Below are positions 1 to 35,073 of a DNA stretch of 64,000 bases, in pieces (within the stretch, counting starts at the first letter, position 1; each line of letters opens with the position of its first letter). The stretch lies in the NCBI RefSeq assembly GCF_003334355.1, contig NZ_QOWP01000020.1; one strand, given 5' to 3'. The notes beneath the pieces were generated by a model. The model saw only the letters and a program-made list of their open reading frames with translations. It ran no database searches and was not told where the DNA came from. Both the position numbers and the translations under genes were made by a program. Origin of the DNA: Escherichia coli (lineage in GTDB: Bacteria; Pseudomonadota; Gammaproteobacteria; Enterobacterales; Enterobacteriaceae).

Positions 1-1
1 G

Positions 2-619
2 GAAAAACGAGTATTTTTAGTCATCCTGTTTACCTCTTTCTCAGGGAGTTTAGTCTCCAGGATTTCCGGGGCGGTTCAGAAGGAGGGGTATCGCCTACGC
101 TTTCATACCGGCAATAAGCAACGTATTTATTCCCTTTTGCATGACGGGAGCGCCGATCTCGCTGTTACCGCATCTATGCCTGATGACCGTCTGTACGGCT
201 ATGCACATCTACTGACTGAACGCATGCTCCTTGTTCATGCTCCCGCCATGTCAGAGATCATCGGATCAGAACCTGGTGCTGAAACGCTTGCCTCATTACC
301 GCTGATTGCTTATGACGAAGAGTTGCCACTGATTAGAGCGCTCTGGGCCTCCATGTTTCAGAGAGCCCCTGAGATGCAGGCTACATTCACCATTCCGGAT
401 TTACGTATTATCCGCGACTTGGTCTGTGACGGCCACGGGTGGACAGTGCTGCCGGATTATCACTGTGACAATGACCTGAAAAGTGGTCGCCTGATTTCAG
501 TGACACCTGCAGACCTCGCTCCGACTAATCATCTTTATCTGGTCTGGAACAAAAGGACGGCTAATAACAGCCGAACCGCCTATGTTCGGGATTACATTCT
601 TAAAACGTTTCCGCGTTGA
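2..619 (+). CDS. LysR-type transcriptional regulator, C-terminal effector-binding portion; 5' end lies upstream of the window
   Basis: Frame is open from the window edge to the stop at 617-619; the track ORF starts at an internal TTG (137). Assignment to LysR family is from overall sequence pattern, not a search. Confidence 0.5.
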   Translation, partial: EKRVFLVILFTSFSGSLVSRISGAVQKEGYRLRFHTGNKQRIYSLLHDGSADLAVTASMPDDRLYGYAHLLTERMLLVHAPAMSEIIGSEPGAETLASLPLIAYDEELPLIRALWASMFQRAPEMQATFTIPDLRIIRDLVCDGHGWTVLPDYHCDNDLKSGRLISVTPADLAPTNHLYLVWNKRTANNSRTAYVRDYILKTFPR

Positions 620-663
620 TGTTTGAAACGGATGATTGGCGATGCGTATCATAAGTTACGTAT

Positions 664-700
664 GTCCGCTTCTGGCACAAAGCAGACGCCCACTCTCACG
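664..700. repeat. Imperfect ~37-bp hairpin-containing repeat, copy A (GTCCGCT-TCTGGCACAA-AGCAGAC)
   Basis: About 28/38 identity to copy B at 4337-4373; 7-bp arms with a conserved TGGCACAAAGC core. Read directly. Confidence 0.5.
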
Positions 701-749
701 CGAATGCTTTGCCCTTGACTTGCCAACAACCGTATCGCTTGCTCCGCAA

Positions 750-2027
750 CTATGGTTTTTTATTAGAATCTTCGCCACTAAATAAATTATAATAAATTGA
801 TTTTATTAGATATCTGTCAGAATCTATATGGTCAGCACGAGTAGCATGCTCTAATGTTTCAAATGCTAGGGTTTGTGCGGCTTCAGCAAAAATTCCAGGC
901 CAACCCTTACTCAGCATCGACAGTCCTTTAAGTACCCTTATCTGAATTTCCCTCATACTGGCACCATCGCGCGCAACAGGTGAGAAAAAGTCTTCAAGTA
1001 GATCGTTATTCTGAAGTGGTGCAACATGTACAGAAGGATATTTCACTTCTATTTCATCAGATTTATTCTGCGCGTAAGCGGAAAGTATACGTACACCTCT
1101 GCCAATGACATCAATGGCGGTTCCAGGATCGTTCACTGCGGGGGAAAGGGCTCGGCAGGCTATTTCGGCCATGACGCTAAGACAAAATCGGGGGTCCTGA
1201 GCAAATGAACGTACATCCGAGACAATAATCGTCTCAAGTAAATCGGTGCTGATTGATGACTCCTGGCCCTGACTCAGGTACAAAACTGGCGTGGACGGAT
1301 GTATGAAACTGCCCGGCTGCGCCACGAGGTATACATGACGGGGATCATTGGTCAGCAGCTTGCTGAGTTTCACCATATCAACATATTCAACATAGCCAAT
1401 CTTTTTCGGATAAACTGCAACCGTTCCTTTCGGCTGTTCATTGTTCTCAAGCCATGGATATCCGCCGAGACAGGGATTTCTTGCTCTCGCAATAAATGTT
1501 TCGATGGCCGCCTGTTCTACTTTTGCCGTTGTCTCACCAACCCTCCCCAGAGAGGTCAAATGCTGTATCCAGCGAAGCAATGTGATGAGGATTAAGGCAA
1601 TGACAACCAGTGTTACAATGAATAAAATGACTCTCCCCCTTTCTCCATAAGCTCCCATATTGAGGGCAATAATCCCTACCAGACTGAAGAGAAAAGAACC
1701 GATGAAGGTGGCCAGTACATTTTGTGTGGTGACGTCTTCAACAACTAAACGAGTAGCTCTGGGAGTCACATTAGTAGTGGCTGAACCGTAGGCTGTGACC
1801 ATGATGCTCAGCGAAAATGTGGTCACTGCCAGCATACTCGATGCCAGTATGTTCAGAATGTTATCGACTGCTTCCGCACCAACCTTCACGGAAACCGACT
1901 CAGGTATCATTGATTTAAAAAGAATTGATAAAAGGGCCGTTATTATTGCGACAATTGCGAATAACGTTGCCCTGAACCATAGTTTTTTAAATGTCTGCTT
2001 CAGCATCCATTTCCAGCGTGAAATCAT
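750..2027 (-). CDS. DUF2254-like integral membrane protein (four N-terminal TM helices plus soluble C-terminal domain)
   Basis: ORF 750..2042; start moved to the second ATG (MISRWKW) which has a GAGGG RBS about 8 nt upstream. Four hydrophobic segments in the first ~150 aa. Gene is AT-rich compared with neighbours. Confidence 0.55.
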   Translation of the reverse strand: MISRWKWMLKQTFKKLWFRATLFAIVAIITALLSILFKSMIPESVSVKVGAEAVDNILNILASSMLAVTTFSLSIMVTAYGSATTNVTPRATRLVVEDVTTQNVLATFIGSFLFSLVGIIALNMGAYGERGRVILFIVTLVVIALILITLLRWIQHLTSLGRVGETTAKVEQAAIETFIARARNPCLGGYPWLENNEQPKGTVAVYPKKIGYVEYVDMVKLSKLLTNDPRHVYLVAQPGSFIHPSTPVLYLSQGQESSISTDLLETIIVSDVRSFAQDPRFCLSVMAEIACRALSPAVNDPGTAIDVIGRGVRILSAYAQNKSDEIEVKYPSVHVAPLQNNDLLEDFFSPVARDGASMREIQIRVLKGLSMLSKGWPGIFAEAAQTLAFETLEHATRADHIDSDRYLIKSIYYNLFSGEDSNKKP

Positions 2028-2052
2028 TCTGCATTCCCTCATATTGCAGCCG

Positions 2053-2081
2053 GGATAAATAAATGCCGCCTCTGTGGCGGC
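2053..2081 (-). terminator. Candidate intrinsic terminator/attenuator between the BCCT gene and the DUF2254 gene
   Basis: GCCGCC-N5-GGCGGC hairpin (2065-2081) followed on the minus strand by AUUUAUUUAU, starting about 10 nt after the BCCT stop. Confidence 0.4.
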
Positions 2082-2090
2082 ATGTTGCTG

Positions 2091-4094
2091 TTAACGAACC
2101 AGATGCAGGAAGTGCAGGTGTTTTTCGTACTGGTCCAGTATGTCATTAATCAGCTGTTCCTGATTCCAGCCCATTACATCATAATTTTGGCCGCCCTCTT
2201 TGAGATAGACTTCAGCGCGATAATATCGATGTTGTTCACTCTGCTGCTCATCATTATCCAGCGCAGCGAGCGCGAAGGTCGGTGAGTTATACCCGCGAAG
2301 CCTCACTTCATATATATAATTCAGCTCGTTGCCCAAATCGACTTCAAGGCGAATACGATCCTCGGCGGCGTCACTGATGTGGCTTATCGTTCCCTGCTTG
2401 TTAAGTTCCTCCTGAACCAGCGTCATGGCGGGTTGGATAATGTCGTCCATAAAACGTTTCACAAGAGAGCGCTTCGGCAAATACGCGATATTGCGTAACC
2501 TTCTCTGCCAGGGAATTGGGTTACGTGCAGCCGTAGGAGCAATAGTCGCCATGCTAAGGCTTTCACGCTTGGTCAAATCCCGACGCAGGGCTTTTAACAG
2601 TCCGTATATGGATATTAATAAGATAACTGAGAAGGGCAATGCACTCGCTATCGTTACGGTTTGCAACGCACTCAGCCCCCCTGCGATCAGCAGGGCAATA
2701 GCAACAACGCCCATGAGCGATGCCCAGAAAATTCGCTGCCAGACGGGCGTGTTTGCCACCCCACCTGATGCCAGAGTATCCACAACCATTGCCCCCGAAT
2801 CAGCAGACGTTACAAAGAAGACGATGACCATCGCCATTGCAATGAATGACAGCACGGAAGAGAACGGGAAATGCTCCAGGAAATTAAACAGGGCAAGCGC
2901 AACATCCTGCTGAACGGTATTGGCGAGGTCAGTGGCGCCCTGGTTCATGATGAGATAGATGGCGCTGTTTCCAAACACCGTCATCCACATGAGCGTAAAG
3001 CCGGCGGGAACAAACAACACGCCAGTCACGAACTCACGAATTGTCCTGCCGCGGGAAACGCGTGCAATGAACATACCTACAAACGGCGACCATGAAAGCC
3101 ACCATCCCCAGTATAATAATGTCCAGCCCCCCAGCCAGTTGCTCGACTTGGGTTCATACGCGTAAAGGTTGAACGTTTTACTCACCAGTTCCGACAGATA
3201 ACCACCCGTATTTTCCACAAATGACTTCAGCAGAAGCACAGTGGGACCCAGGCACAAGACCAGCGCCAGGAGCAACACCGCCAGGCCCAGATTAAGCTCA
3301 GACAGGATGCGTATTCCCTTGTCCAGGCCGGACACCACCGAAATCGTCGCTAACCCCGTGATGACCACGATCAAAATGACCTGTACCGTTTCATTGATGG
3401 GCACGCCGAAAAGATGGTTCAAACCGGCATTCACCTGCAATACACCGTAACCCAGCGATGTTGCAACGCCAAAGACAGTGCCTATCACGGCGAAGATATC
3501 AACCGCGTGGCCTATAGGCCCGTAAATGCGATCGCCGATAATGGGATAGAGCGCAGAACGCAGCGTTAAAGGCAGACCGTGACGGTAACTGAAAAAGGCC
3601 AGAATCAGCGCCACGATGGCATAAATTGCCCATGCGTGCAGACCCCAGTGGAAGAACGTCAGGCGCATGGCTTCCTTCGCTGCCGCAACGGTCTCTGGAG
3701 TGCCGACAGGTGGCGAAAGATAATGCATCACAGGTTCGGCAACGCCAAAGAACATCAGGCCGATCCCCATCCCTGCCGAAAAAAGCATCGCGAACCAGGA
3801 GTGGTAGCTGAAATCAGGCTGCGCATGGTCTGGGCCCAGCTTTATATCACCGTAACGTGAGAGTCCAAGGAACGTGACGCTCAGTAAAATCAGGGCCACA
3901 GCAAGTATGTAGAACCAGCTGGCATTCGTGAAGATTTGTTGCTGAAGTAGTTTAAAATTTTTGTCGGCGACATCCGGGAATACGGCGGCAAAGGCGACAA
4001 GAAGGAAAATTAGCAAAGCAGATGTAAAGAATACCGCTTTGTTAATCTGGCTTGTAGACTTCTTTGGGGTTGTATCATTTTCACTCATAATCAT
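2091..4094 (-). CDS. BCCT-family transporter (betaine/carnitine/choline type), BetT-like with long C-terminal cytoplasmic extension
   Basis: 667-aa ORF. Conserved BCCT motifs (GWTLLYWGWWLSWSPFVGMFIARVSRGRTIREF) and overall similarity to E. coli BetT recalled from memory; clearly not identical to betT, caiT or yeaV. Confidence 0.8.
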   Translation of the reverse strand: MIMSENDTTPKKSTSQINKAVFFTSALLIFLLVAFAAVFPDVADKNFKLLQQQIFTNASWFYILAVALILLSVTFLGLSRYGDIKLGPDHAQPDFSYHSWFAMLFSAGMGIGLMFFGVAEPVMHYLSPPVGTPETVAAAKEAMRLTFFHWGLHAWAIYAIVALILAFFSYRHGLPLTLRSALYPIIGDRIYGPIGHAVDIFAVIGTVFGVATSLGYGVLQVNAGLNHLFGVPINETVQVILIVVITGLATISVVSGLDKGIRILSELNLGLAVLLLALVLCLGPTVLLLKSFVENTGGYLSELVSKTFNLYAYEPKSSNWLGGWTLLYWGWWLSWSPFVGMFIARVSRGRTIREFVTGVLFVPAGFTLMWMTVFGNSAIYLIMNQGATDLANTVQQDVALALFNFLEHFPFSSVLSFIAMAMVIVFFVTSADSGAMVVDTLASGGVANTPVWQRIFWASLMGVVAIALLIAGGLSALQTVTIASALPFSVILLISIYGLLKALRRDLTKRESLSMATIAPTAARNPIPWQRRLRNIAYLPKRSLVKRFMDDIIQPAMTLVQEELNKQGTISHISDAAEDRIRLEVDLGNELNYIYEVRLRGYNSPTFALAALDNDEQQSEQHRYYRAEVYLKEGGQNYDVMGWNQEQLINDILDQYEKHLHFLHLVR

Positions 4095-4336
4095 TTATTC
4101 CATTAATTAAATCCGCACTGGATAGAAGGTACTACCTCTCACAGAGTAGCAAAGTTCAACTGGCTATGCGGGGTTAATCGGAATGCATGGTGGAATGAGT
4201 GCCGATACAAATCATCCTATATTCTAAGGAGTTTTAAGTTACTCAGCCTGCCAATTACTGGGGCATTTAATTTGTATGATCTGTATCAAAGCTGGGATAT
4301 AAGTTAAGTGAAGTATATTAGGCACGAATTACCAGC

Positions 4337-4373
4337 GTCTGCTCTTGGCACAAAGCGGACAACCACGCTAGCT
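4337..4373. repeat. Imperfect ~37-bp hairpin-containing repeat, copy B (GTCTGCT-CTTGGCACAA-AGCGGAC)
   Basis: Pairs with copy A at 664-700; the two copies bracket the BCCT-DUF2254 gene pair. Confidence 0.5.
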
Positions 4374-4428
4374 CTACCCTGTGCCACAAAATGTCAATTT
4401 GCATCTGAACTAATGCACTTTAATCTCG

Positions 4429-4851
4429 TCACTTCAATAAATACCGAACATCCCCCTGATAAAACGACAATATGCGCTGCATAACTTCGCTCTTCCGGCA
4501 CTCGCGACAGATTATGTTTAGGCGACTGTCGTAGCGACGTATTTCTCCGTCAGGTAATGACCAGATAAGGTCCGGATCAACCACAACCGGTTTCTTCAGC
4601 TTTGCCCTCGATAATTTTTTGCGGGCATTTTGCCAGTCTTTACGAGCCTGTTCAGACGGGAATAACCCGTAGCCAGAATTGTATACATCGCCACTGGCAA
4701 CCAGCTCTCTGGCCAGAACGCTCATCAGATATCTTGTTGCCCCAGTTTTAGCTTCCAGTTGTCGTAACGTCTCGCGCCCACTCTGGCGTACGAGTTCAAG
4801 AACCTGCCCTTTAATTTTTTCCCGCTCTTCTTGTGTAAAAACTTTTGCCAC
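4429..4851 (-). CDS. Hypothetical prophage protein, 140 aa, basic, possible winged-helix segment
   Basis: ORF directly downstream of the ydaU-like gene; no Walker A motif, so not the DnaC-like ydaV expected at this position in K-12 Rac. No family recognised. Confidence 0.45.
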   Translation of the reverse strand: MAKVFTQEEREKIKGQVLELVRQSGRETLRQLEAKTGATRYLMSVLARELVASGDVYNSGYGLFPSEQARKDWQNARKKLSRAKLKKPVVVDPDLIWSLPDGEIRRYDSRLNIICRECRKSEVMQRILSFYQGDVRYLLK

Positions 4852-4891
4852 AAGCCCTCCTGAAAATTACCTCATGACCAGAAATTAACAC

Positions 4892-5968
4892 TTACCCCCT
4901 GAAGCCCGGCGGAATTTCGTTATCCGGTTCAGAAATATGATTCACACAACGCTGGTTGTTCGTGCCGCTTACCGGGAGCAACCAGGGGTTCTCAAAATTC
5001 CGGTCCGGTCCAAAAAACGTCGTCGCTCGCTGAACAAATTCCGTTCCCGTTTTCCCGGTAGCCGCCAAGTATCTTGCGTAACGCCTCACGCCATCCAGCA
5101 TGGCCTCTGGTGGCACCCCCTCGCGTAATCTGGCCTTCCAGGCACTGAAAGCGGATTTCTTCGGGTTTGCCCCAGCACGCAACGGGTACTCCCGCCAGAC
5201 CTGTTCGAACACATCCGGATAATCCACTCGTCCCACAGACTGCCCGGTGTTTTCCGGGACTACCCGATCGGCTTCCCGCTGAATGGCGGAATCGGCTTCA
5301 GGCTGCTGCAGTTGGTGTGATTGCTCCGCCCTTGCGGTCATCACCTGCTGCACAGCGCCCGAATCGGCTTTCAGCGCATACGCTGAATCGGCTTCCGGTG
5401 TCGTGCCTGCTGGCTGACCAAGATTGACGGTCTGAACATCCCCTGCCTGGTTCGTGGCGTTTTTTACGCCATGGACCATAGTGTTTTGATCTTCTTGATC
5501 TGTATCTTTATCTGTATCTTTATCTGTCGTGACTCGTCGTGACATGTGCGTGACATTTCGTGACGCGCCGTGACAATCGCCATTTTGTTCCCGCTTTCTT
5601 TCCCTCTCTCGCTGCGCCCTCTTGCGCTCTGCAGGAGATTTTGCGGTTTGCGAAATATTGCCGTTGTCCTCTTTAAGCACCTGGCGTTTTTCCCATCCAG
5701 TGATTAAATCACCATCAAGTACCCGCCCCTGCATCGTCTGCAAAATTGAATCAATTACCTCTTCTGTCACGTCGAGCGCACTTGCCAAATCTTCTGTCGT
5801 GACATCAATGTGACCTCGCGTGACATTTCGTGACGCGCTCACCAGGAGGTGGATATACACTGCCATCACTGTTGCAATTGGCTGTCCTGACACCCTGGCA
5901 ATTGTTCGCCACTTAGGGTCATTTGGCATGTCATGCCATAATCTGAGCCAGGCGTTAGCCATACTCAC
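4892..5968 (-). CDS. ydaU: YdaU-like prophage replication protein (DUF1376-like N-terminus, DnaT-like C-terminus, repeat-rich acidic linker)
   Basis: 358-aa ORF next to ydaT as in K-12 Rac; contains internal DNA direct repeats. Longer than the 285 aa I recall for K-12 YdaU, so treated as ydaU-like. Confidence 0.55.
   Translation of the reverse strand: MSMANAWLRLWHDMPNDPKWRTIARVSGQPIATVMAVYIHLLVSASRNVTRGHIDVTTEDLASALDVTEEVIDSILQTMQGRVLDGDLITGWEKRQVLKEDNGNISQTAKSPAERKRAQRERERKREQNGDCHGASRNVTHMSRRVTTDKDTDKDTDQEDQNTMVHGVKNATNQAGDVQTVNLGQPAGTTPEADSAYALKADSGAVQQVMTARAEQSHQLQQPEADSAIQREADRVVPENTGQSVGRVDYPDVFEQVWREYPLRAGANPKKSAFSAWKARLREGVPPEAMLDGVRRYARYLAATGKTGTEFVQRATTFFGPDRNFENPWLLPVSGTNNQRCVNHISEPDNEIPPGFRG
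5526..5576. repeat. Iteron-like cluster 1: five CGTGAC direct repeats at 10-11 bp spacing, preceded by an AT-rich TATCTT/TATCTG repeat tract (5489-5527)
   Basis: CGTGAC at 5528, 5538, 5549, 5559, 5569; read directly. Confidence 0.6.
5797..5836. repeat. Iteron-like cluster 2: four (C/T)GTGAC direct repeats at 10-11 bp spacing, plus an inverted GTCACG at 5767-5772
   Basis: Repeats at 5798, 5809, 5819, 5829; the 19-mer GCGTGACATTTCGTGACGCG is shared with cluster 1. Confidence 0.6.
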
Positions 5969-6033
5969 CTCTTTTGATACCGAATCTTTTTACTCACAAA
6001 TTGCCGGAAGTGATCCGGTATGAATATTGCGCG

Positions 6034-6459
6034 TCAATGCACAGCCACAATATTTCCTGCAGGGCCACCACGATTCATCTGGTTGAAACCAGCGATCGCC
6101 ACTGCGACAAAATCATCAGCGTCTCTCACCAGTCGTTCCCGCGTCTCCACTAGTTCCCGAAAATAGGCTGAGCTATGGCTGCGCATTCGGGCCACCAGCA
6201 GAGGTGGCATTGCTTTTTCGATAGCTGGTAACAACGCCTGAATTTTTTCAACTGCATCAGGGGTGTCTTTCTCTACCCAGCGGAAAATTTTCTGGGTATT
6301 GCGAGCCAGGGCTTCCGGATGGCTGTCGTCATACAGTTCTGGGAACGTCATACCCAGTTCAAAATAAGCCCTGGTTATTTCAGCTGCCGGAACTTTTTCA
6401 CCGTCCGGATGCGCCCAGGCATTCATCGCCATGCGGATGTGTTCATGCTTGATTTTCAT
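6034..6459 (-). CDS. ydaT: Rac prophage YdaT-like protein (toxic when derepressed)
   Basis: 141-aa ORF at the K-12 ydaT position, overlapping the upstream ydaS by 17 bp. Confidence 0.65.
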   Translation of the reverse strand: MKIKHEHIRMAMNAWAHPDGEKVPAAEITRAYFELGMTFPELYDDSHPEALARNTQKIFRWVEKDTPDAVEKIQALLPAIEKAMPPLLVARMRSHSSAYFRELVETRERLVRDADDFVAVAIAGFNQMNRGGPAGNIVAVH

Positions 6460-6724
6460 GAATCAAGCTCCTAGAAAGTGGTTGTGTTAACATTTTGGTA
6501 TCTTCCAGCTCGGGCCAAATATTCATCCAATCAAAAGGCCTTAGTTGCTGACGTGTAACTTCACCATTACTGGCTCGCTCAATAAGGACACATAACGATG
6601 CCCCTAACACTTGACCTTTACTCAATGCCTTTCTTAGATAACCGATGCTGGTACCACACTCGCATGCAAACATACGCTGTTCATCTGACGAAAGAGAATT
6701 GAGAAATATTCTTAATTCTTCCAT
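6443..6724 (-). CDS. ydaS: Rac prophage YdaS-like HTH protein
   Basis: 93-aa ORF divergent from racR, first gene of the ydaS-ydaT pair. Confidence 0.6.
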   Translation of the reverse strand: MEELRIFLNSLSSDEQRMFACECGTSIGYLRKALSKGQVLGASLCVLIERASNGEVTRQQLRPFDWMNIWPELEDTKMLTQPLSRSLIHENQA

Positions 6725-6752
6725 AGCTACTCCTTAGTAAACACAGCAAAGA

Positions 6753-6828
6753 ATACCCATAGGTAAACAAAAGTCAATACCCACAGGTTGTTTACCTTGC
6801 AGTAATCGCATCTATTATTTACCTATGG
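6753..6828. promoter_or_regulatory. Divergent racR / ydaS-ydaT control region with repeated ATACCCATAGGTA-type operator half-sites
   Basis: ATACCCATAGGTAAAC (6753-6768), TACCCACAGGTTGTTTACC (6778-6796) and its inverted copy TATTTACCTATGG (6816-6828, overlapping the racR start). Confidence 0.5.
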
Positions 6829-7244
6829 ACAAATATGAATTTAGACGACAGCAACTCATCAAAATTCGTGATGAGAAATGCGATGGTAAAGCGGTTAACG
6901 TGGCCAGAAAGATCGGGCGCGAGCCTTCTTATGTATCAAGAATGTTGTACCCAGAGGGGAAAAAGGGAAAAAAACGGATCGCTGATGATATGGTGGAGAT
7001 TATCGAAGAGTCCTTTGGGTTACCCCGGGGATGGATGGATGGTATCGTTTCATCATCAACGAACACAGCCTCCAGTTATGAAACAAGGGTTCTAACGCCA
7101 CGACAACGTATTTTTTTAGATCTCTTAGACGAACTGCCAGAAAGTGAAGCGGATAACTTATTAAAAACTCTTGAAGAGAAAAAACAGTATTACAATATGA
7201 TCTACGAAGAAATCCGTAAAAAGAAAGCACAAAACGCATCATAG
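6825..7244 (+). CDS. racR: RacR-like prophage repressor (XRE/HTH-like)
   Basis: 139-aa ORF divergent from ydaS-ydaT, at the K-12 racR position; no in-frame upstream start before the stop at 6738. Confidence 0.6.
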   Translation: MDKYEFRRQQLIKIRDEKCDGKAVNVARKIGREPSYVSRMLYPEGKKGKKRIADDMVEIIEESFGLPRGWMDGIVSSSTNTASSYETRVLTPRQRIFLDLLDELPESEADNLLKTLEEKKQYYNMIYEEIRKKKAQNAS

Positions 7245-7285
7245 CTCACCAAACAACTAGTCACCAGTTAAGACACCGTAAAAAG

Positions 7286-7324
7286 TTACCCATGGGTATT
7301 TACTTTTTAAATACCTATGGGTAT
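7286..7324. promoter_or_regulatory. Operator-like palindromes downstream of racR and upstream of ydaG-ydaF
   Basis: Perfect 12-bp palindrome TACCCATGGGTA (7287-7298) and 14-bp near-palindrome ATACCTATGGGTAT (7311-7324), same motif family as the racR upstream sites. Confidence 0.5.
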
Positions 7325-7498
7325 CCTTCTTTTCATACCAACCCACCCCGCCCCACAGAATGCAGGGCAATACTTCGAGTTACCAGGCAGTGGTCAGGGG
7401 TTAAGTAGCCAGCCCGAGGCGTAAGAACATGACGGCGGGATTCAAATTTTGCAGTGCAGCAGTTAGTTCCGCCACCCGGCGTTAAGGGGAGAGATAAG

Positions 7499-7633
7499 AT
7501 GGTGCATTACGAAGTAGTTCAGTATTTGATGGATTGTTGCGGTATCACTTACAACCAGGCTGTGCAGGCTTTACGCAGCAACGACTGGGATCTCTGGCAG
7601 GCAGAAGTCGCTATACGTAGCAACAAGATGTGA
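7499..7633 (+). CDS. ydaG: Rac prophage small protein YdaG (44 aa)
   Basis: ATG preceded by a GGGGAG RBS; below the track's 60-aa cutoff, translated by hand; position matches K-12 order racR-ydaG-ydaF-sieB. Confidence 0.55.
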   Translation: MVHYEVVQYLMDCCGITYNQAVQALRSNDWDLWQAEVAIRSNKM

Positions 7634-7643
7634 GATTCGCAAA

Positions 7644-7799
7644 ATGCAAAAAATCGACCTCGGCAACAACGAATCCCTGGTGTGCGGCGTGTTCCCCAAC
7701 CAGGATGGAACGTTCACTGCCATGACGTATACCAAAAGCAAAACATTTAAAACCGAAACTGGTGCGCGCCGATGGTTGGAGAAGCACACAGTAAGCTAA
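7644..7799 (+). CDS. ydaF: Rac prophage small protein YdaF (51 aa)
   Basis: Hand-translated (MQKIDLGNNESLVCGVFPNQDGTFTAMTYTKSKTFKTETGARRWLEKHTVS); below the track cutoff. Confidence 0.55.
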   Translation: MQKIDLGNNESLVCGVFPNQDGTFTAMTYTKSKTFKTETGARRWLEKHTVS

Positions 7800-8284
7800 C
7801 GATTAAAACGTCTACTCCTGCTGTTCCAGAATAACTTCATAAAATGGGAGTATTTTTCGGTGACGAGATAATAAGAACAGTTTGCGCTATCACTCTGATG
7901 TTGAATGATGCCCTTCCGTTCTAATTTTTTCATAACCGGGTTACGGCAAGGAGAAGTGATAATAAGATTTCCTGTTTTAAGGAAATCTTTAAATACAGCG
8001 ATTTCTTTCTCAGATAAACGAAGCAATACTCGTTGCTCTGGTAGTAATGAATAATGCTTTTGAATATGTGCTCGCAATCTTGAGAAGGAAATGGCGACCA
8101 CGAAAGAAAAGGCAAAAACGATAATCTGAAAGAGCCAAGGTATTTCAGTATAAGCATTGAATGCGACAGTAAACTCTTTCGGTATCAGCCAGAGAGTGAG
8201 ACCAAAAATGATAATCGTATACATAAGTCTTTCGAGTGGCTCGTTAGCAAAAAGTTTCAACAATGGAGTAAATACATCCAACAT
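7796..8284 (-). CDS. sieB: Superinfection exclusion protein SieB
   Basis: 162-aa product starting MLDVFTPLL at an internal ATG of the 203-aa track ORF; matches recalled SieB length and sequence. Confidence 0.8.
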   Translation of the reverse strand: MLDVFTPLLKLFANEPLERLMYTIIIFGLTLWLIPKEFTVAFNAYTEIPWLFQIIVFAFSFVVAISFSRLRAHIQKHYSLLPEQRVLLRLSEKEIAVFKDFLKTGNLIITSPCRNPVMKKLERKGIIQHQSDSANCSYYLVTEKYSHFMKLFWNSRSRRFNR

Positions 8285-15006: not shown

Positions 15007-15942
15007 ATGCAAGAAAATCAACAAATTACAAAGAAAGAACAATACAACCTGAACAAATTACAAAAACGTCTGCGTCGTAACGTGGGCGAAGCCATTGCTG
15101 ACTTCAATATGATTGAAGAAGGCGATCGCATCATGGTTTGCCTCTCCGGGGGTAAAGACAGCTATACCATGCTGGAGATTCTGCGCAATTTGCAGCAAAG
15201 CGCGCCAATCAATTTTTCGCTGGTGGCTGTTAACCTCGATCAAAAGCAACCGGGCTTCCCGGAACACGTTCTGCCCGAGTATCTTGAAAAGCTGGGCGTT
15301 GAGTACAAGATTGTTGAAGAGAATACTTACGGTATCGTGAAAGAGAAGATTCCAGAGGGCAAAACCACTTGCTCACTGTGTTCTCGCCTTCGTCGCGGTA
15401 TCCTTTATCGTACCGCAACGGAACTGGGGGCGACGAAGATCGCGTTGGGTCACCATCGTGACGATATCCTGCAAACGTTGTTCTTAAATATGTTCTACGG
15501 CGGTAAGATGAAAGGTATGCCTCCGAAACTGATGAGCGATGATGGCAAACATATCGTTATTCGTCCGCTGGCCTACTGCCGCGAGAAAGATATTCAGCGA
15601 TTTGCCGATGCAAAAGCGTTCCCGATTATTCCGTGCAACCTGTGCGGTTCACAGCCTAACCTGCAACGTCAGGTGATTGCTGACATGTTGCGTGACTGGG
15701 ATAAACGTTATCCAGGGCGTATCGAGACGATGTTCAGCGCGATGCAGAATGTGGTGCCGTCGCATCTGTGCGATACCAACCTGTTCGATTTCAAAGGCAT
15801 CACCCACGGTTCTGAAGTGGTTAACGGGGGTGATCTGGCGTTTGATCGCGAAGAGATCCCACTACAACCGGCGGGCTGGCAGCCAGAAGAAGATGAAAAT
15901 CAGTTGGATGAGTTACGGCTGAATGTGGTTGAAGTGAAATAA
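15007..15942 (+). CDS. ttcA: tRNA 2-thiocytidine(32) synthetase TtcA
   Basis: 311 aa; SGGKDS PP-loop motif and paired CxxC motifs. Confidence 0.9.
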
Positions 15943-15950
15943 CCAGGATA

Positions 15951-16024
15951 GCGCCCGATGCGCAAGCGTATCGGGCTACTCTTATGGAGGCCGGATAAGA
16001 CGCGGCCAGCGTCGCATCCGGCAA
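15951..16024. repeat. REP (repetitive extragenic palindrome) elements between ttcA and dbpA
   Basis: GCGCCCGATGCGCAAGCGTATCGGGC and GGCCGGATAAGACGCGGCCAGCGTCGCATCCGGC palindromic units. Confidence 0.6.
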
Positions 16025-16070
16025 TCCCGAATAAGATGTTTACTCTTGCACCCGGCAATTCAACATTTCA

Positions 16071-17444
16071 TTATTTTAATAACCGCACCCGGCACGTTTT
16101 TCCTTTAATCTTCCCGCCCTGTAACTGTTTCCATGCTTTATGAGCAACAGCCTGACGGACCGCGACATAGACATGCGCCGGATGCACGGCGATTTTGCCA
16201 ATATCTGCGCCATCAAGCCCGATATCTCCTGTCAGTGCACCTAATACATCACCCGGGCGCATTTTGGCTTTTTTCCCGCCATCGATACACAACGTTGCCA
16301 TTTCTGCTTCCAGCGTCGCAATGGAACTATTAGCTGGCGGCGTTTGCCAGTTAAGTTTTATCTGCAACATGTCAGAAATGATATTGGCCCGCTGTGCTTC
16401 TTCCGGAGCACAGAAACTGATCGCCAGACCGCTATTTCCTGCACGAGCTGTACGACCGATGCGATGTACATGAACTTCAGGGTCCCACGCCAGCTCAAAG
16501 TTCACCACCAGCTCAAGCGATTTAATATCCAGACCACGCGCAGCAACATCAGTCGCGACCAGTACACGGGCGCTACCGTTAGCAAAACGTACCAGGGTCT
16601 GATCGCGATCGCGTTGCTCCAAATCGCCGTGTAATGACAATGCACTTTGCCCTACTTCATTCAGCGCGTCGCAGACAGCCTGGCAATCTTTTTTGGTATT
16701 GCAAAACACCACGCAAGAGGATGGCTGATGCAAGCTTAATAACCGTTGCAACAGAGGAATTTTGCCTTTGCTGGATGTCTCATAAAATTGTTGTTCAATG
16801 GGTGGCAAAGCATCTGTTGAGTCAATTTCAATCGCCAAAGGATCGCGTTGCACTCGTCCGCTGATTGCAGCGATGGCTTCCGGCCAGGTTGCCGAAAACA
16901 GAAGCGTCTGTCGAGATGCAGGCGCAAAACGGATGACATCATCAATGGCATCGCTAAATCCCATATCCAGCATGCGGTCGGCCTCATCCATCACCAGCGT
17001 ATTCAACGCATCCAGTGATACCGTGCCTTTTTGCAGGTGATCCAGCAAACGCCCCGGCGTTGCCACGATAATATGCGGCGCATGTTGCAACGAATCACGC
17101 TGCATACCGAACGGTTGACCACCGCACAACGTCAAAATTTTGGTATTTGGCAGAAAACGCGCCAGCCGACGCAATTCACCTGCCACCTGATCCGCCAGTT
17201 CACGCGTAGGACACAGCACTAAAGCCTGGGTTTGAAATAGCGACGCATCAATTTGCTGTAACAAGCCGAGGCCAAAAGCCGCCGTTTTGCCGCTGCCGGT
17301 TTTCGCCTGCACGCGAACATCTTTTCCGGCAAGGATCGCCGGAAGCGCGGCGGCCTGCACCGGCGTCATGGTTAAATAACCCAACTCATTAAGGTTCGTG
17401 AGTTGGGCGGGAGGCAAAACATTCAGGGTAGAAAAAGCGGTCAC
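16071..17444 (-). CDS. dbpA: ATP-dependent RNA helicase DbpA
   Basis: 457 aa; DEAD-box motifs (GSGKT, DEAD). Confidence 0.95.
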   Translation of the reverse strand: MTAFSTLNVLPPAQLTNLNELGYLTMTPVQAAALPAILAGKDVRVQAKTGSGKTAAFGLGLLQQIDASLFQTQALVLCPTRELADQVAGELRRLARFLPNTKILTLCGGQPFGMQRDSLQHAPHIIVATPGRLLDHLQKGTVSLDALNTLVMDEADRMLDMGFSDAIDDVIRFAPASRQTLLFSATWPEAIAAISGRVQRDPLAIEIDSTDALPPIEQQFYETSSKGKIPLLQRLLSLHQPSSCVVFCNTKKDCQAVCDALNEVGQSALSLHGDLEQRDRDQTLVRFANGSARVLVATDVAARGLDIKSLELVVNFELAWDPEVHVHRIGRTARAGNSGLAISFCAPEEAQRANIISDMLQIKLNWQTPPANSSIATLEAEMATLCIDGGKKAKMRPGDVLGALTGDIGLDGADIGKIAVHPAHVYVAVRQAVAHKAWKQLQGGKIKGKTCRVRLLK

Positions 17445-17473
17445 AATCTATTCTCGTGGTCATCGACGCAAAG

Positions 17474-32526: not shown

Positions 32527-32862
32527 AAGTTTCCCTCTAACCGACATTAAAATTGATGCGTAATTATTTGTTTCGCCTTAAAGAAATGCAAACAACTTCC
32601 ATCAAAAAAGTGACAAAGGAAGCATCAAATGTTTTAAGTATCAATATATCAAATCAGATTTAGTGTAAATAATAGTCTCCAAAATGCGGTAAAGCACATA
32701 GAACTCCGAACACTACGTTCGGGCTTCGCACGTTCAAACCCGTTTTCGGTATCATAATCAGCATCTGTCGCCATTGTACGAAGAATAAAAAATGACCAAA
32801 ACGTTGAAAGGAACTGAGAATACGTTAAGAGAAGAATTAAATTAATGTATCAGCAAGTAGTG

Positions 32863-34890: not shown

Positions 34891-35073
34891 ATGAAAAATG
34901 TACTGATTCTTGGTGCTGGCGGTCAGATAGCCCGCCATGTGATTAATCAACTGGCAGATAAGCAAACCATTAAACAAACTTTATTTGCCCGTCAGCCAGC
35001 AAAAATCCACAAACCCTATCCAACTAATAAAATGCAAACAACTTCCGGCAAAAAAGTGATACAAGATCGATGA
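34891..35073 (+). pseudogene. Short ORF resembling the N-terminal Rossmann (GAGGQIA) fragment of an NAD(P)-binding protein; likely gene remnant (ymjC-like)
   Basis: 60 aa, MKNVLILGAGGQIARHVINQLADKQ..., terminates after about 60 codons. Confidence 0.4.

Follow-up and report, generated by a model that had tools for sequence, protein, structure and literature searches.

The question raised by this locus is why two related, imperfect hairpins should bracket a pair of genes encoding a BetT-like BCCT transporter and a DUF2254 protein. The locus lies in 64,000 nucleotides of Escherichia coli DNA (contig NZ_QOWP01000020.1 of assembly GCF_003334355.1), a stretch referred to as the window. The initial annotation, made from the letters of the window, had proposed that the hairpins mark an insertion or recombination boundary or form a small repeat family. 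Comparison with other genomes has joined the two proposals: homology in other E. coli genomes breaks at both hairpins, and the hairpins are members of a large family placed at cassette boundaries. The element is dispersed, yet it is tied to the edges of modules at phage hotspots. The hairpins are probably the sites of a cassette system of phages, plasmids and islands, in which the BCCT-DUF2254 pair is one cassette, placed by exchange within the core of the site and likely through a recombinase of 200 amino acids (aa).

Junctions of the BCCT-DUF2254 cassette

The two hairpins lie on the same strand and share 20 of 24 bases. The 38-bp similarity described at the outset is present exactly as written, with 28/38 identical positions (74%) between 664-701 and 4337-4374, and the repeat search of the window gave 79% over 33 nt. 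The arm mismatches are swapped, as had also been observed: copy 1 pairs a left arm GTCCGCT with a right arm AGCAGAC (C/A mismatch), and copy 2 pairs GTCTGCT with AGCGGAC (T/G mismatch). Chance similarity has been ruled out by shuffle controls. A degenerate 24-mer with at most 3 mismatches matches the 64-kb window at sites 1 and 2 only and matches 100 shuffles nowhere, and related 7-10-7 hairpin pairs number 1 in the real window and 0 in 20 shuffles.

The two intergenic regions were compared by BLAST with 5,426 complete E. coli genomes. The whole region was found in only ~320 of them. DNA on the right side of site 2 was matched in genomes without the module, the matches beginning exactly at 4337; DNA on the right side of site 1 was matched without the flank carrying a LysR-family gene, the matches beginning at 662 or 668. 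The module lies between two sites of type A, whose core is TGGCAC, in three contexts: the window (the full strain is locus L001; comparison loci are numbered with the prefix L), L003 and the plasmid locus L250. At the left junction the window reads GTCCGCTTC, TGGCAC and AAAGCAGAC, followed by the module (gcccactctc...). L003 has GTCCGCTCA and plasmid L250 has GCCCGCTTT before the same core, the same right half-site AAAGCAGAC and the same module. The three left flanks are unrelated to one another, and the sequences are identical from the core rightwards. At the right junction the same module end (...accagc) precedes GTCTGCTCT, TGGCAC and AAAGCGGAC in all three loci; what follows is the DUF977 backbone (aaccacgc...) in the window and L003, and a relB flank (agtgatcacc...) in the plasmid. 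The module is always joined exactly at the core in its three contexts.

At the same backbone position, L002 (strain 98209) carries unrelated cargo and a perfect palindrome, GTCCGCTCT, TGGCAC and AAAGCGGAC (in full, GTCCGCTCTTGGCACAAAGCGGAC). The Qin prophage of K-12 has the same kind of backbone as the plasmid (relB) with other cargo (flxA) and the left half-site GGCTGCTCC. From these alignments, each hairpin of the window is a chimera of two parental perfect palindromes, which explains the swapped arm mismatches. The parents would have carried C-G and T-A at arm position 4, and each junction would keep one half-site per parent. At site 1 the left half belongs with the LysR-side cassette and the right half with the module; at site 2 the left half belongs with the module and the right half with the backbone of the prophage. 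Closing the cassette into a circle would create the perfect palindrome GTCTGCTCT TGGCAC AAAGCAGAC at its junction, and the site resident in the backbone would be the perfect palindrome of L002; one exchange within the core would then give both mismatched chimeras. The cassette would thereby have come to lie between the LysR cassette and the backbone of the prophage, through reciprocal exchange in the 6-bp core between its own site and a resident one; for the present genome, both the direction and the timing of this event are presumed.

A comparison with genomes lacking the module had been proposed in order to see whether a single copy occupies the empty site. Such genomes do keep a single A site at the same backbone positions (by DUF977 in L002, by relB in K-12 Qin); the other part of the expectation did not hold, as other cargo lies on the left and no exact empty join was seen.

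A diverged BCCT(-DUF2254) copy or remnant, 91-97% identical, occurs in an IS-rich island by the fec operon in ~1,000-2,000 E. coli genomes. In these copies (L260, L249, L004) IS600 lies 103 nt upstream of the BCCT gene, and a degenerate A-like site, GTTTGCTTT, TGGCAC and AAAGCATAC, lies past DUF2254. The fec island may represent an earlier location of the module or a separate one.

Site types and organisation of the arrays

The family of sites was explored by scanning viral contigs with the degenerate 24-mer GTCCGCTNNTNGCACNNAGCGGAC, which matched at least 120 stretches; there were 127 matches in 42 sequence variants among the matches listed. A position weight matrix derived from these matches gave 0 hits in 1.29 Mb of shuffled sequence at a threshold of 16 bits, and it revealed a second type of site. 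Type A has the sequence GTCCGCTyy TGGCAC rrAGCGGAC and type B the sequence GTCCGCTyy TCGCTC rrAGCGGAC. Overall, ~250 comparison loci were fetched, in which the sites bracket mostly single-gene cassettes. The 9-6-9 layout is found in 133 unique A and 62 unique B sites, with arms that are almost invariant and a core that is invariant per type. An A-Y dinucleotide is conserved 5' of the site.

The two types follow an orientation rule. Site counts were taken from 125 oriented loci, which hold 191 A(+) and 138 B(-) sites and 1 A(-). They contain 127 B-to-A intervals enclosing cargo, nearly all of 0.4-4.8 kb. The start-to-start spacing from A to B is exactly 42 nt in 44 of 65 cases, and a further class of 684 nt (7 cases) or similar length is accounted for by a recombinase gene. 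The arrays can thus be written as B(-) cargo A(+), 18 nt, B(-) cargo A(+), repeating. The 18-nt spacers of the doublets vary in sequence (36 variants in 50) and keep their length and a loose consensus. A-to-A intervals are rare: there are 9 only, including the interval of 3,673 bp in the window. The BCCT-DUF2254 unit is an atypical cassette, carrying an A site only.

The cassettes (133, with a median of 1,466 bp) are mostly simple, and 94 of them contain just one gene of 80 aa or more. Their cargo forms 143 clusters, is oriented either way (103 minus, 96 plus) and includes PD-T7-1, TIR and SIR2/ThsA-like defence proteins.

Inverted arms around an asymmetric centre of 6-8 bp are the layout of a tyrosine-recombinase core site, and the 9-6-9 sites have this layout. 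It is somewhat better than an even guess that the hairpins are double-stranded recombination core sites of this kind and not structural hairpins. Excess base-pairing at positions 8:17 or 9:16 was not seen in the site set, and an extended hairpin is therefore not under selection.

A few sites depart from the two types. Hybrid cores are rare (TGGCTC three times and TCGCAC twice, 5 in total; L007 4705, L045 6158, L037 4867, L203 4861) and fit occasional A x B recombination at the core centre. A B-type site in L003 (3879-3935) has a loop expanded by five tandem copies of GAGCGAA between the arms GTCCGCGGT and AGCAGAC, which suggests slippage at the core.

Confinement of breakpoints to the core

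Within the site, there is almost no variation in the core or at arm positions 1-7 and 18-24, whereas positions 8-9 and 16-17 do vary and can therefore be used as markers. Mutual information showed that nt 16, 17, 21, 25 and 26 track the right flank (z 3-15, weakest for nt 21), and that nt 0, 8 and 9 track the left flank (z ~4-5) and not the right (z ~0-1). Among 299 pairs of A sites with the same right and different left flanks, nt 8-9 are identical in 20%, nt 16-17 in 86% and nt 25-26 in 84%, against a background of 19%, 13% and 8% in 6,965 pairs in which both flanks differ; these pair counts are not independent events, many loci being related prophages. Pairs of B sites behave like those of A sites, and a few reciprocal pairs go the opposite way. 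Since the linkage of the markers switches between nt 9 and nt 16, this comparative evidence places the breakpoints essentially always between these two positions, inside the core. The module junctions in the three contexts likewise put strand exchange within the central region. Restriction to the core is the product expected of a site-specific enzyme with fixed cleavage points.

These results bear directly on the strongest competing explanation. According to it, the palindromes are conserved intergenic elements with another role, such as the binding of a regulator or nucleoid protein, and the cargo is shuffled by short-homology recombination (RecA, RecET, Red), for which the palindromes would be the only sequence shared between unrelated cargo genes. 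The PeSL elements of T4-type phages are thought to work in such a way. The prophage in the window encodes RecE, with RecT-type functions nearby, and the 18-nt spacer length, the loose consensus and the 42-bp phasing would suit cooperative protein binding. Most arrays are without the recombinase gene, and no recombinase was seen near the copies in Hyphomicrobiales. Short-homology recombination, however, predicts junctions equally in the 7-nt arms and in the spacer, whereas nt 8-9 are unlinked to the right flank and nt 16-17 are linked to it as tightly as the flank itself. Lengths of 6 to 24 bp are also far under those that these pathways are known to use efficiently, and the A/B orientation rule and the existence of two cores would be left unexplained. 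Shuffling by short homology is thus considered unlikely, and exchange by a site-specific enzyme is preferred.

A candidate recombinase

The enzyme that best fits such exchange is encoded within some of the arrays. In L002 an A site at 1160 is followed by a gene at 1202-1804 and a B site at 1844; the product (WP_023147793) is a protein of 200 aa annotated as "site-specific integrase". It matches only Pfam PF00589, that is, the catalytic domain alone, with weak matches to XerA, XerC, IntI and Fim-type models that are far under the cutoffs. In alignments, the HxxR, H and Y motifs match up with XerD and the first arginine with XerA. The gene is found in 11 comparison loci and, together with its flanking sites, in 772 of the 5,426 E. 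coli genomes, on chromosomes as well as plasmids. On plasmid pB18271_2 it adjoins the BCCT-DUF2254 module.

Homologues are widespread. Some ~8,000 were detected below an E value of 1e-10; the best 120 of ~8,000, at 77-95% identity, span several gammaproteobacterial orders, with representatives in Enterobacterales, Proteus, Providencia, Pantoea, Idiomarina, Cycloclasticus and Pseudoalteromonas. The stop codon is followed at 18-19 nt by an A-type site (GTCCGCTnnTGGCACAGGGCTGnT) in 9 of 9 places in Idiomarina, Proteus and Cycloclasticus/marine metagenomes, and likewise in E. coli. In Proteus a B-type half-site lies 66 nt upstream in 3 of 4 places, and the DNA around contains A/B arrays with defence-like cargo. 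The association of the gene with the sites thus holds across four genera.

On a marine metagenome contig (L263, 1797-1900), a homologue of 46% identity is preceded by two palindromes with the arms ATGTTCGCT/AGCGAACAT (GTTCGCT/AGCGAAC), a compensatory change relative to GTCCGC/GCGGAC. In this single case, site and enzyme may have co-evolved; co-variation of the two among distant homologues is suggestive at best.

Sequence features and gene neighbourhood together make this tyrosine recombinase the likely catalyst, acting in trans, and it would cut and join at the core by way of a circular intermediate. As a dimer of dimers, the enzyme would pair like sites (A x A, B x B) and exchange strands across the 6-bp core. 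Since the arms of A and B are alike and the cores are not, the two types should be heterospecific, which would keep a B...A cassette stable. Recombination between successive A sites would yield a circle with one cargo and one doublet, and any A site of another phage, a plasmid or an island could take up the released circle.

Platforms carrying the arrays

Arrays of A and B sites occupy defined positions on several platforms, which also include plasmids and genomic islands. In P2-like phages they lie between the tail-fibre assembly gene G (32 loci) and the tail sheath gene FI (17 loci), that is, at the P2 Z/fun hotspot. In phage P2 itself (L128, AF063097) an A site at 15335-15358, 61 nt past the stop codon of gene G, and a degenerate B site at 17432-17455, upstream of fun(Z), bracket this lysogenic-conversion gene. 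In lambdoid prophages the nearest gene on the right side of the array is a DUF977/ren-like one, as seen in 22 fetched loci. In Qin of K-12 (L127), A/B sites at 15982-16005 and 16973-16996 bracket ydfV/flxA beside relB. The A site of Qin lies inside the annotated ydfV frame (15898-16203), which casts some doubt on the annotation. Cargo is present at the analogous position in DLP12 (emrE region) and Rac (trkG region) of K-12, and no A or B sites were detected there. A scan of one genome per species found A/B arrays, among the matches listed, in Enterobacter, Citrobacter, Pantoea, Erwinia, Serratia, Rahnella, Cedecea, Mixta, Kosakonia, Buttiauxella, Idiomarina and others.

A different arrangement was encountered in Hyphomicrobiales, where the palindrome is extended to ATGTCCGCT...AGCGGACAT and has many copies per genome. 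Loci with the extended palindrome come from metagenome-assembled genomes (MAGs) of Hyphomicrobium (L182, L186, L188, L139, L150), from Nitrosospira (L196, L197) and from Rhizobium, Microvirga, Pseudolabrys and Paracoccaceae. The units of Hyphomicrobiales consist of three palindromes in the same orientation, ~45 nt apart, with the cores TGGCAC, CGGGGG and TGACCC. Such units are spaced 1-3 kb apart as direct repeats among genes that look ordinary, and may represent either a cassette array of the chromosome or a family of REP-like elements.

The latter resemblance leads to a second alternative, in which all these palindromes would be selfish elements of the REP/REPIN kind, spread by an HUH-type or other transposase and found at module edges only through intergenic insertion. 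Inverted A-18 nt-B doublets do resemble REPIN doublets, the Hyphomicrobium MAGs have dozens of intergenic copies per genome, and a dinucleotide, A-Y, is conserved 5' of the site. This dinucleotide is, however, not a GTAG-type tetranucleotide, and no RAYT gene is among the recurrent neighbours in the loci. The window holds only two copies in 64 kb, both at module edges, and in K-12 there are none in DLP12 or Rac and two in Qin. The halves of one site, moreover, segregate with different flanks, unlike an element inserted whole. The view of the initial annotation that the hairpins are not REP-like is therefore retained, and a REP/REPIN origin is regarded as very improbable.

Weakest of all, and hardly credible, is the proposal that the sites are RNA or transcription elements (terminator, attenuator or processing hairpin) that flank the pair merely through their position at gene ends: both copies in the window do lie 63-69 nt past the stop codon of a minus-strand gene, and the A site of P2 is in the 3' untranslated part of the V operon, but neither copy has a T-run 3' of it or is among the terminator-like calls for the window (the absence of terminator U-runs had been noted before), the single-strand folds are weak (-3 to -5.2 kcal/mol, z -0.5 to -1.3), an Rfam 15 scan of window positions 1-8000 at E<=1 matched nothing but an unrelated lncRNA model (6252-6303), stem positions vary without compensatory pairing, cargo faces either way, and the annotated V-operon terminator of P2 is separate from the A site, at 15639-15666.

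Several observations weigh against the reading of the hairpins as sites of a cassette system served by the 200-aa recombinase. The recombinase gene is absent from the 64-kb window, and only ~6% of viral loci carry it. The arms that face it are degenerate (AGGGCTG..), so that its flanking sites are not canonical, and its link with the sites comes from sequence comparison. More distant homologues (44-55% identity) have no canonical A/B sites beside them, and related-looking palindromes were seen in one or two cases. No recombinase was found near the Hyphomicrobium arrays in the fragments examined; together with the different arrangement of the Hyphomicrobiales copies, this leaves room for a different or additional factor. 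The statistics on breakpoints draw on loci that include many related prophages. As for the module itself, no case of the LysR flank lacking the DUF2254 flank was seen in the 5,426 E. coli genomes, and synthetic empty joins for L003 and L250 had no full-length match among them. In view of the missing exact empty site, insertion of the module and replacement of its neighbours are not separable.

Relation to known systems

Integrons are a close parallel in organisation. In both systems most cassettes of an array have one gene, the cargo is very diverse and extends to anti-phage defence, and a tyrosine recombinase gene lies beside its sites. The A-18 nt-B doublet resembles attC in being an imperfect inverted repeat of two simple sites with inverted arms and a spacer of 5-6 bp. 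The arms, however, are GTCCGCT/AGCGGAC and not the attC core sites (RYYYAAC ... GTTRRRY); no GTTRRRY motif is present at the cassette boundaries. The crossover lies in the central 6 bp and not at the edge of one core site. The enzyme of 200 aa has no N-terminal domain and no IntI signature and is too short for IntI, and the integron integrase models score it far below their cutoffs (NF011946, 17.6 bits against 435; TIGR02249, 17.2 against 265). Cargo orientation is random, no common promoter is evident, and the platforms are phage hotspots.

The pdif (XerC/XerD) modules of Acinetobacter plasmids are gene modules bounded by arm-6 bp spacer-arm sites of alternating orientation, and they move between replicons without a transposase of their own. 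Discrete modules and short arm-spacer-arm sites of alternating orientation are thus common to both systems. Direct comparison, short of a formal scan, with E. coli dif, whose consensus is taken here to be GGTGCGCATAA-TGTATA-TTATGTTAAAT, showed no likeness of sequence. The likely enzyme is a dedicated, mobile recombinase and not the host XerC/XerD, the sites are of two types that differ in the core, and the context is phage rather than plasmid.

FimB/FimE-type enzymes are similar to the candidate in having ~200 aa and the catalytic domain only, in the weak matches of the candidate to "tyrosine-type DNA invertase" models and in the use of short inverted repeats. Fim enzymes, however, invert a promoter segment between identical 9-bp repeats, whereas the cores of A and B differ and the products are exchanges of cargo, not inversions, with 5 hybrid cores only. 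PeSL cassettes of T4-type phages consist of small accessory genes in hyperplastic regions, flanked by stem-loops that mediate their shuffling. The likeness lies in the conserved stem-loop-type elements around shuffled accessory cassettes. The PeSL element, in contrast, is a terminator plus promoter thought to act through homologous recombination, and the present sites have junctions in a 6-bp core and an associated recombinase gene.

Some further resemblances of the hairpins were considered and abandoned. The likenesses to a sigma-54 promoter (TGGCAC-N5-TTGC) and to lambda boxA (CGCTCTT) were dropped because the -12 element is absent and the strand is wrong for early transcription. The sites of serine invertases (pin/gin/hix) and the sfx repeats of shufflons are not known to be related in sequence.

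The P2 Z/fun region is the same locus with the same sites: A and B flank fun(Z) and the G-FI cargo of many P2-like prophages. The copy in the window differs in lying in a lambdoid prophage, not a P2-like one. Work by Nilsson, Karlsson and Haggard-Ljungquist from 2004 (Mol Biol Evol) reportedly proposes, in its title, site-specific recombination at P2 Z/fun, and is said to have probably noted repeats there. P2 Z/fun is already recognised as a hotspot of variation (Rousset et al. 2022, PMC9122126; iLund4u preprint; both citing Nilsson et al. 2004), and a 2026 preprint states that the recombination processes at hotspots "still need to be elucidated". The recent hotspot papers examined, including Rousset et al. 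and the iLund4u preprint, describe the swapping of cargo but give no mechanism for it, and make no mention of a hairpin, palindrome or stem-loop. Literature searches by sequence and by topic gave no description of the sites or the recombinase, and the papers citing the 2004 P2 work gave no detail of repeats. Relative to the literature searched, what appears to be new is the candidate recombinase, the restriction of breakpoints to the core, the existence of two types of core and the extension of the system to plasmids and lambdoid prophages.

Genomic context of the window

Gene order was taken from the annotation of the E. coli SLK172 record, which, like those of related strains, is 100% identical to the window, and from NCBIfam and PHROGs (Table 1). 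The window lies in a Rac/Qin-like lambdoid prophage with the BCCT-DUF2254 pair directly after the replication module. Site 2 is the start of the cargo hotspot, 69 nt past the stop codon of the DUF977/Ren-like gene, beyond which lie a phage replisome organiser and then ydaT-, racR-, sieB-, kilR- and recE-like genes. On the other side, the neighbouring cassette encodes an MFS transporter, a gamma-glutamylcyclotransferase and the LysR-family regulator; in the full strain it extends from a B(-) site at 2976 to the A(+) site at 7355 (coordinates of L001), which is site 1.

Table 1. Coordinates of the two sites, their half-sites and the surrounding genes in the window
Feature	Coordinates	Strand	Description
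LysR-family regulator gene, 3' part	137..619	+	Last gene of the neighbouring cassette
Site 1	664-687	+	Type-A site, chimeric, GTCCGCTTCTGGCACAAAGCAGAC; degenerate 24-mer search and junction alignment
Site 1, left half	664-672		GTCCGCTTC
Site 1, core	673-678		TGGCAC
Site 1, right half	679-687		AAAGCAGAC
Cassette proper, core to core	679..4345	-	DUF2254, BCCT gene and its upstream region
DUF2254 gene	750-2042	-	Within the cassette
BetT-like BCCT choline/betaine transporter gene	2091-4094	-	Within the cassette
Site 2	4337-4360	+	Type-A site, chimeric, GTCTGCTCTTGGCACAAAGCGGAC; same basis as site 1
Site 2, left half	4337-4345		GTCTGCTCT
Site 2, core	4346-4351		TGGCAC
Site 2, right half	4352-4360		AAAGCGGAC
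DUF977/Ren-like exclusion gene	4429-4851	-	Last backbone gene of the prophage replication module

Other repeats were observed in the window. Clusters of short GTGAC-containing repeats (e.g., GTCGTGACATGTGCGTGACATTTCGTGACGCGCCGTGAC) at 5536-5574 and 5796-5834, and also at 5267-5398, lie inside the phage replisome-organiser gene (4892-5968) and look like origin iterons in an O-like gene, as in lambda. A direct repeat of 42 nt (32579-32620 and 35025-35066; TAAAGAAATGCAAACAACTTCC...AAAAAAGTGA), 83% identical and 2.4 kb apart, is unrelated to the hairpins.

Biological significance

The arrays may tentatively be seen as an uncharacterised, integron-like platform, in which a minimal recombinase of 200 aa and two heterospecific 9-6-9 site types move defence, transport and accessory genes among P2-like and lambdoid phages, plasmids and chromosomal islands throughout Gammaproteobacteria. 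Hyphomicrobiales and other Alphaproteobacteria may have related arrays of sites as well. If this proposal is true, the platform would supply the mechanism that has been missing for the fast exchange of cargo at P2 Z/fun and other phage hotspots, which have been heavily mined for anti-phage defence systems. It would also explain how the same cargo, a BetT-like transporter with its DUF2254 partner, comes to be found in lambdoid prophages and on plasmids.

In practice, cassettes of prophages should be delimited from core to core. A 24-bp site, breakpoints confined to the core and a candidate enzyme make the swapping at hotspots testable by a simple plasmid recombination assay. If the enzyme is confirmed, it would provide a very small site-specific recombinase with heterospecific sites for genome engineering.

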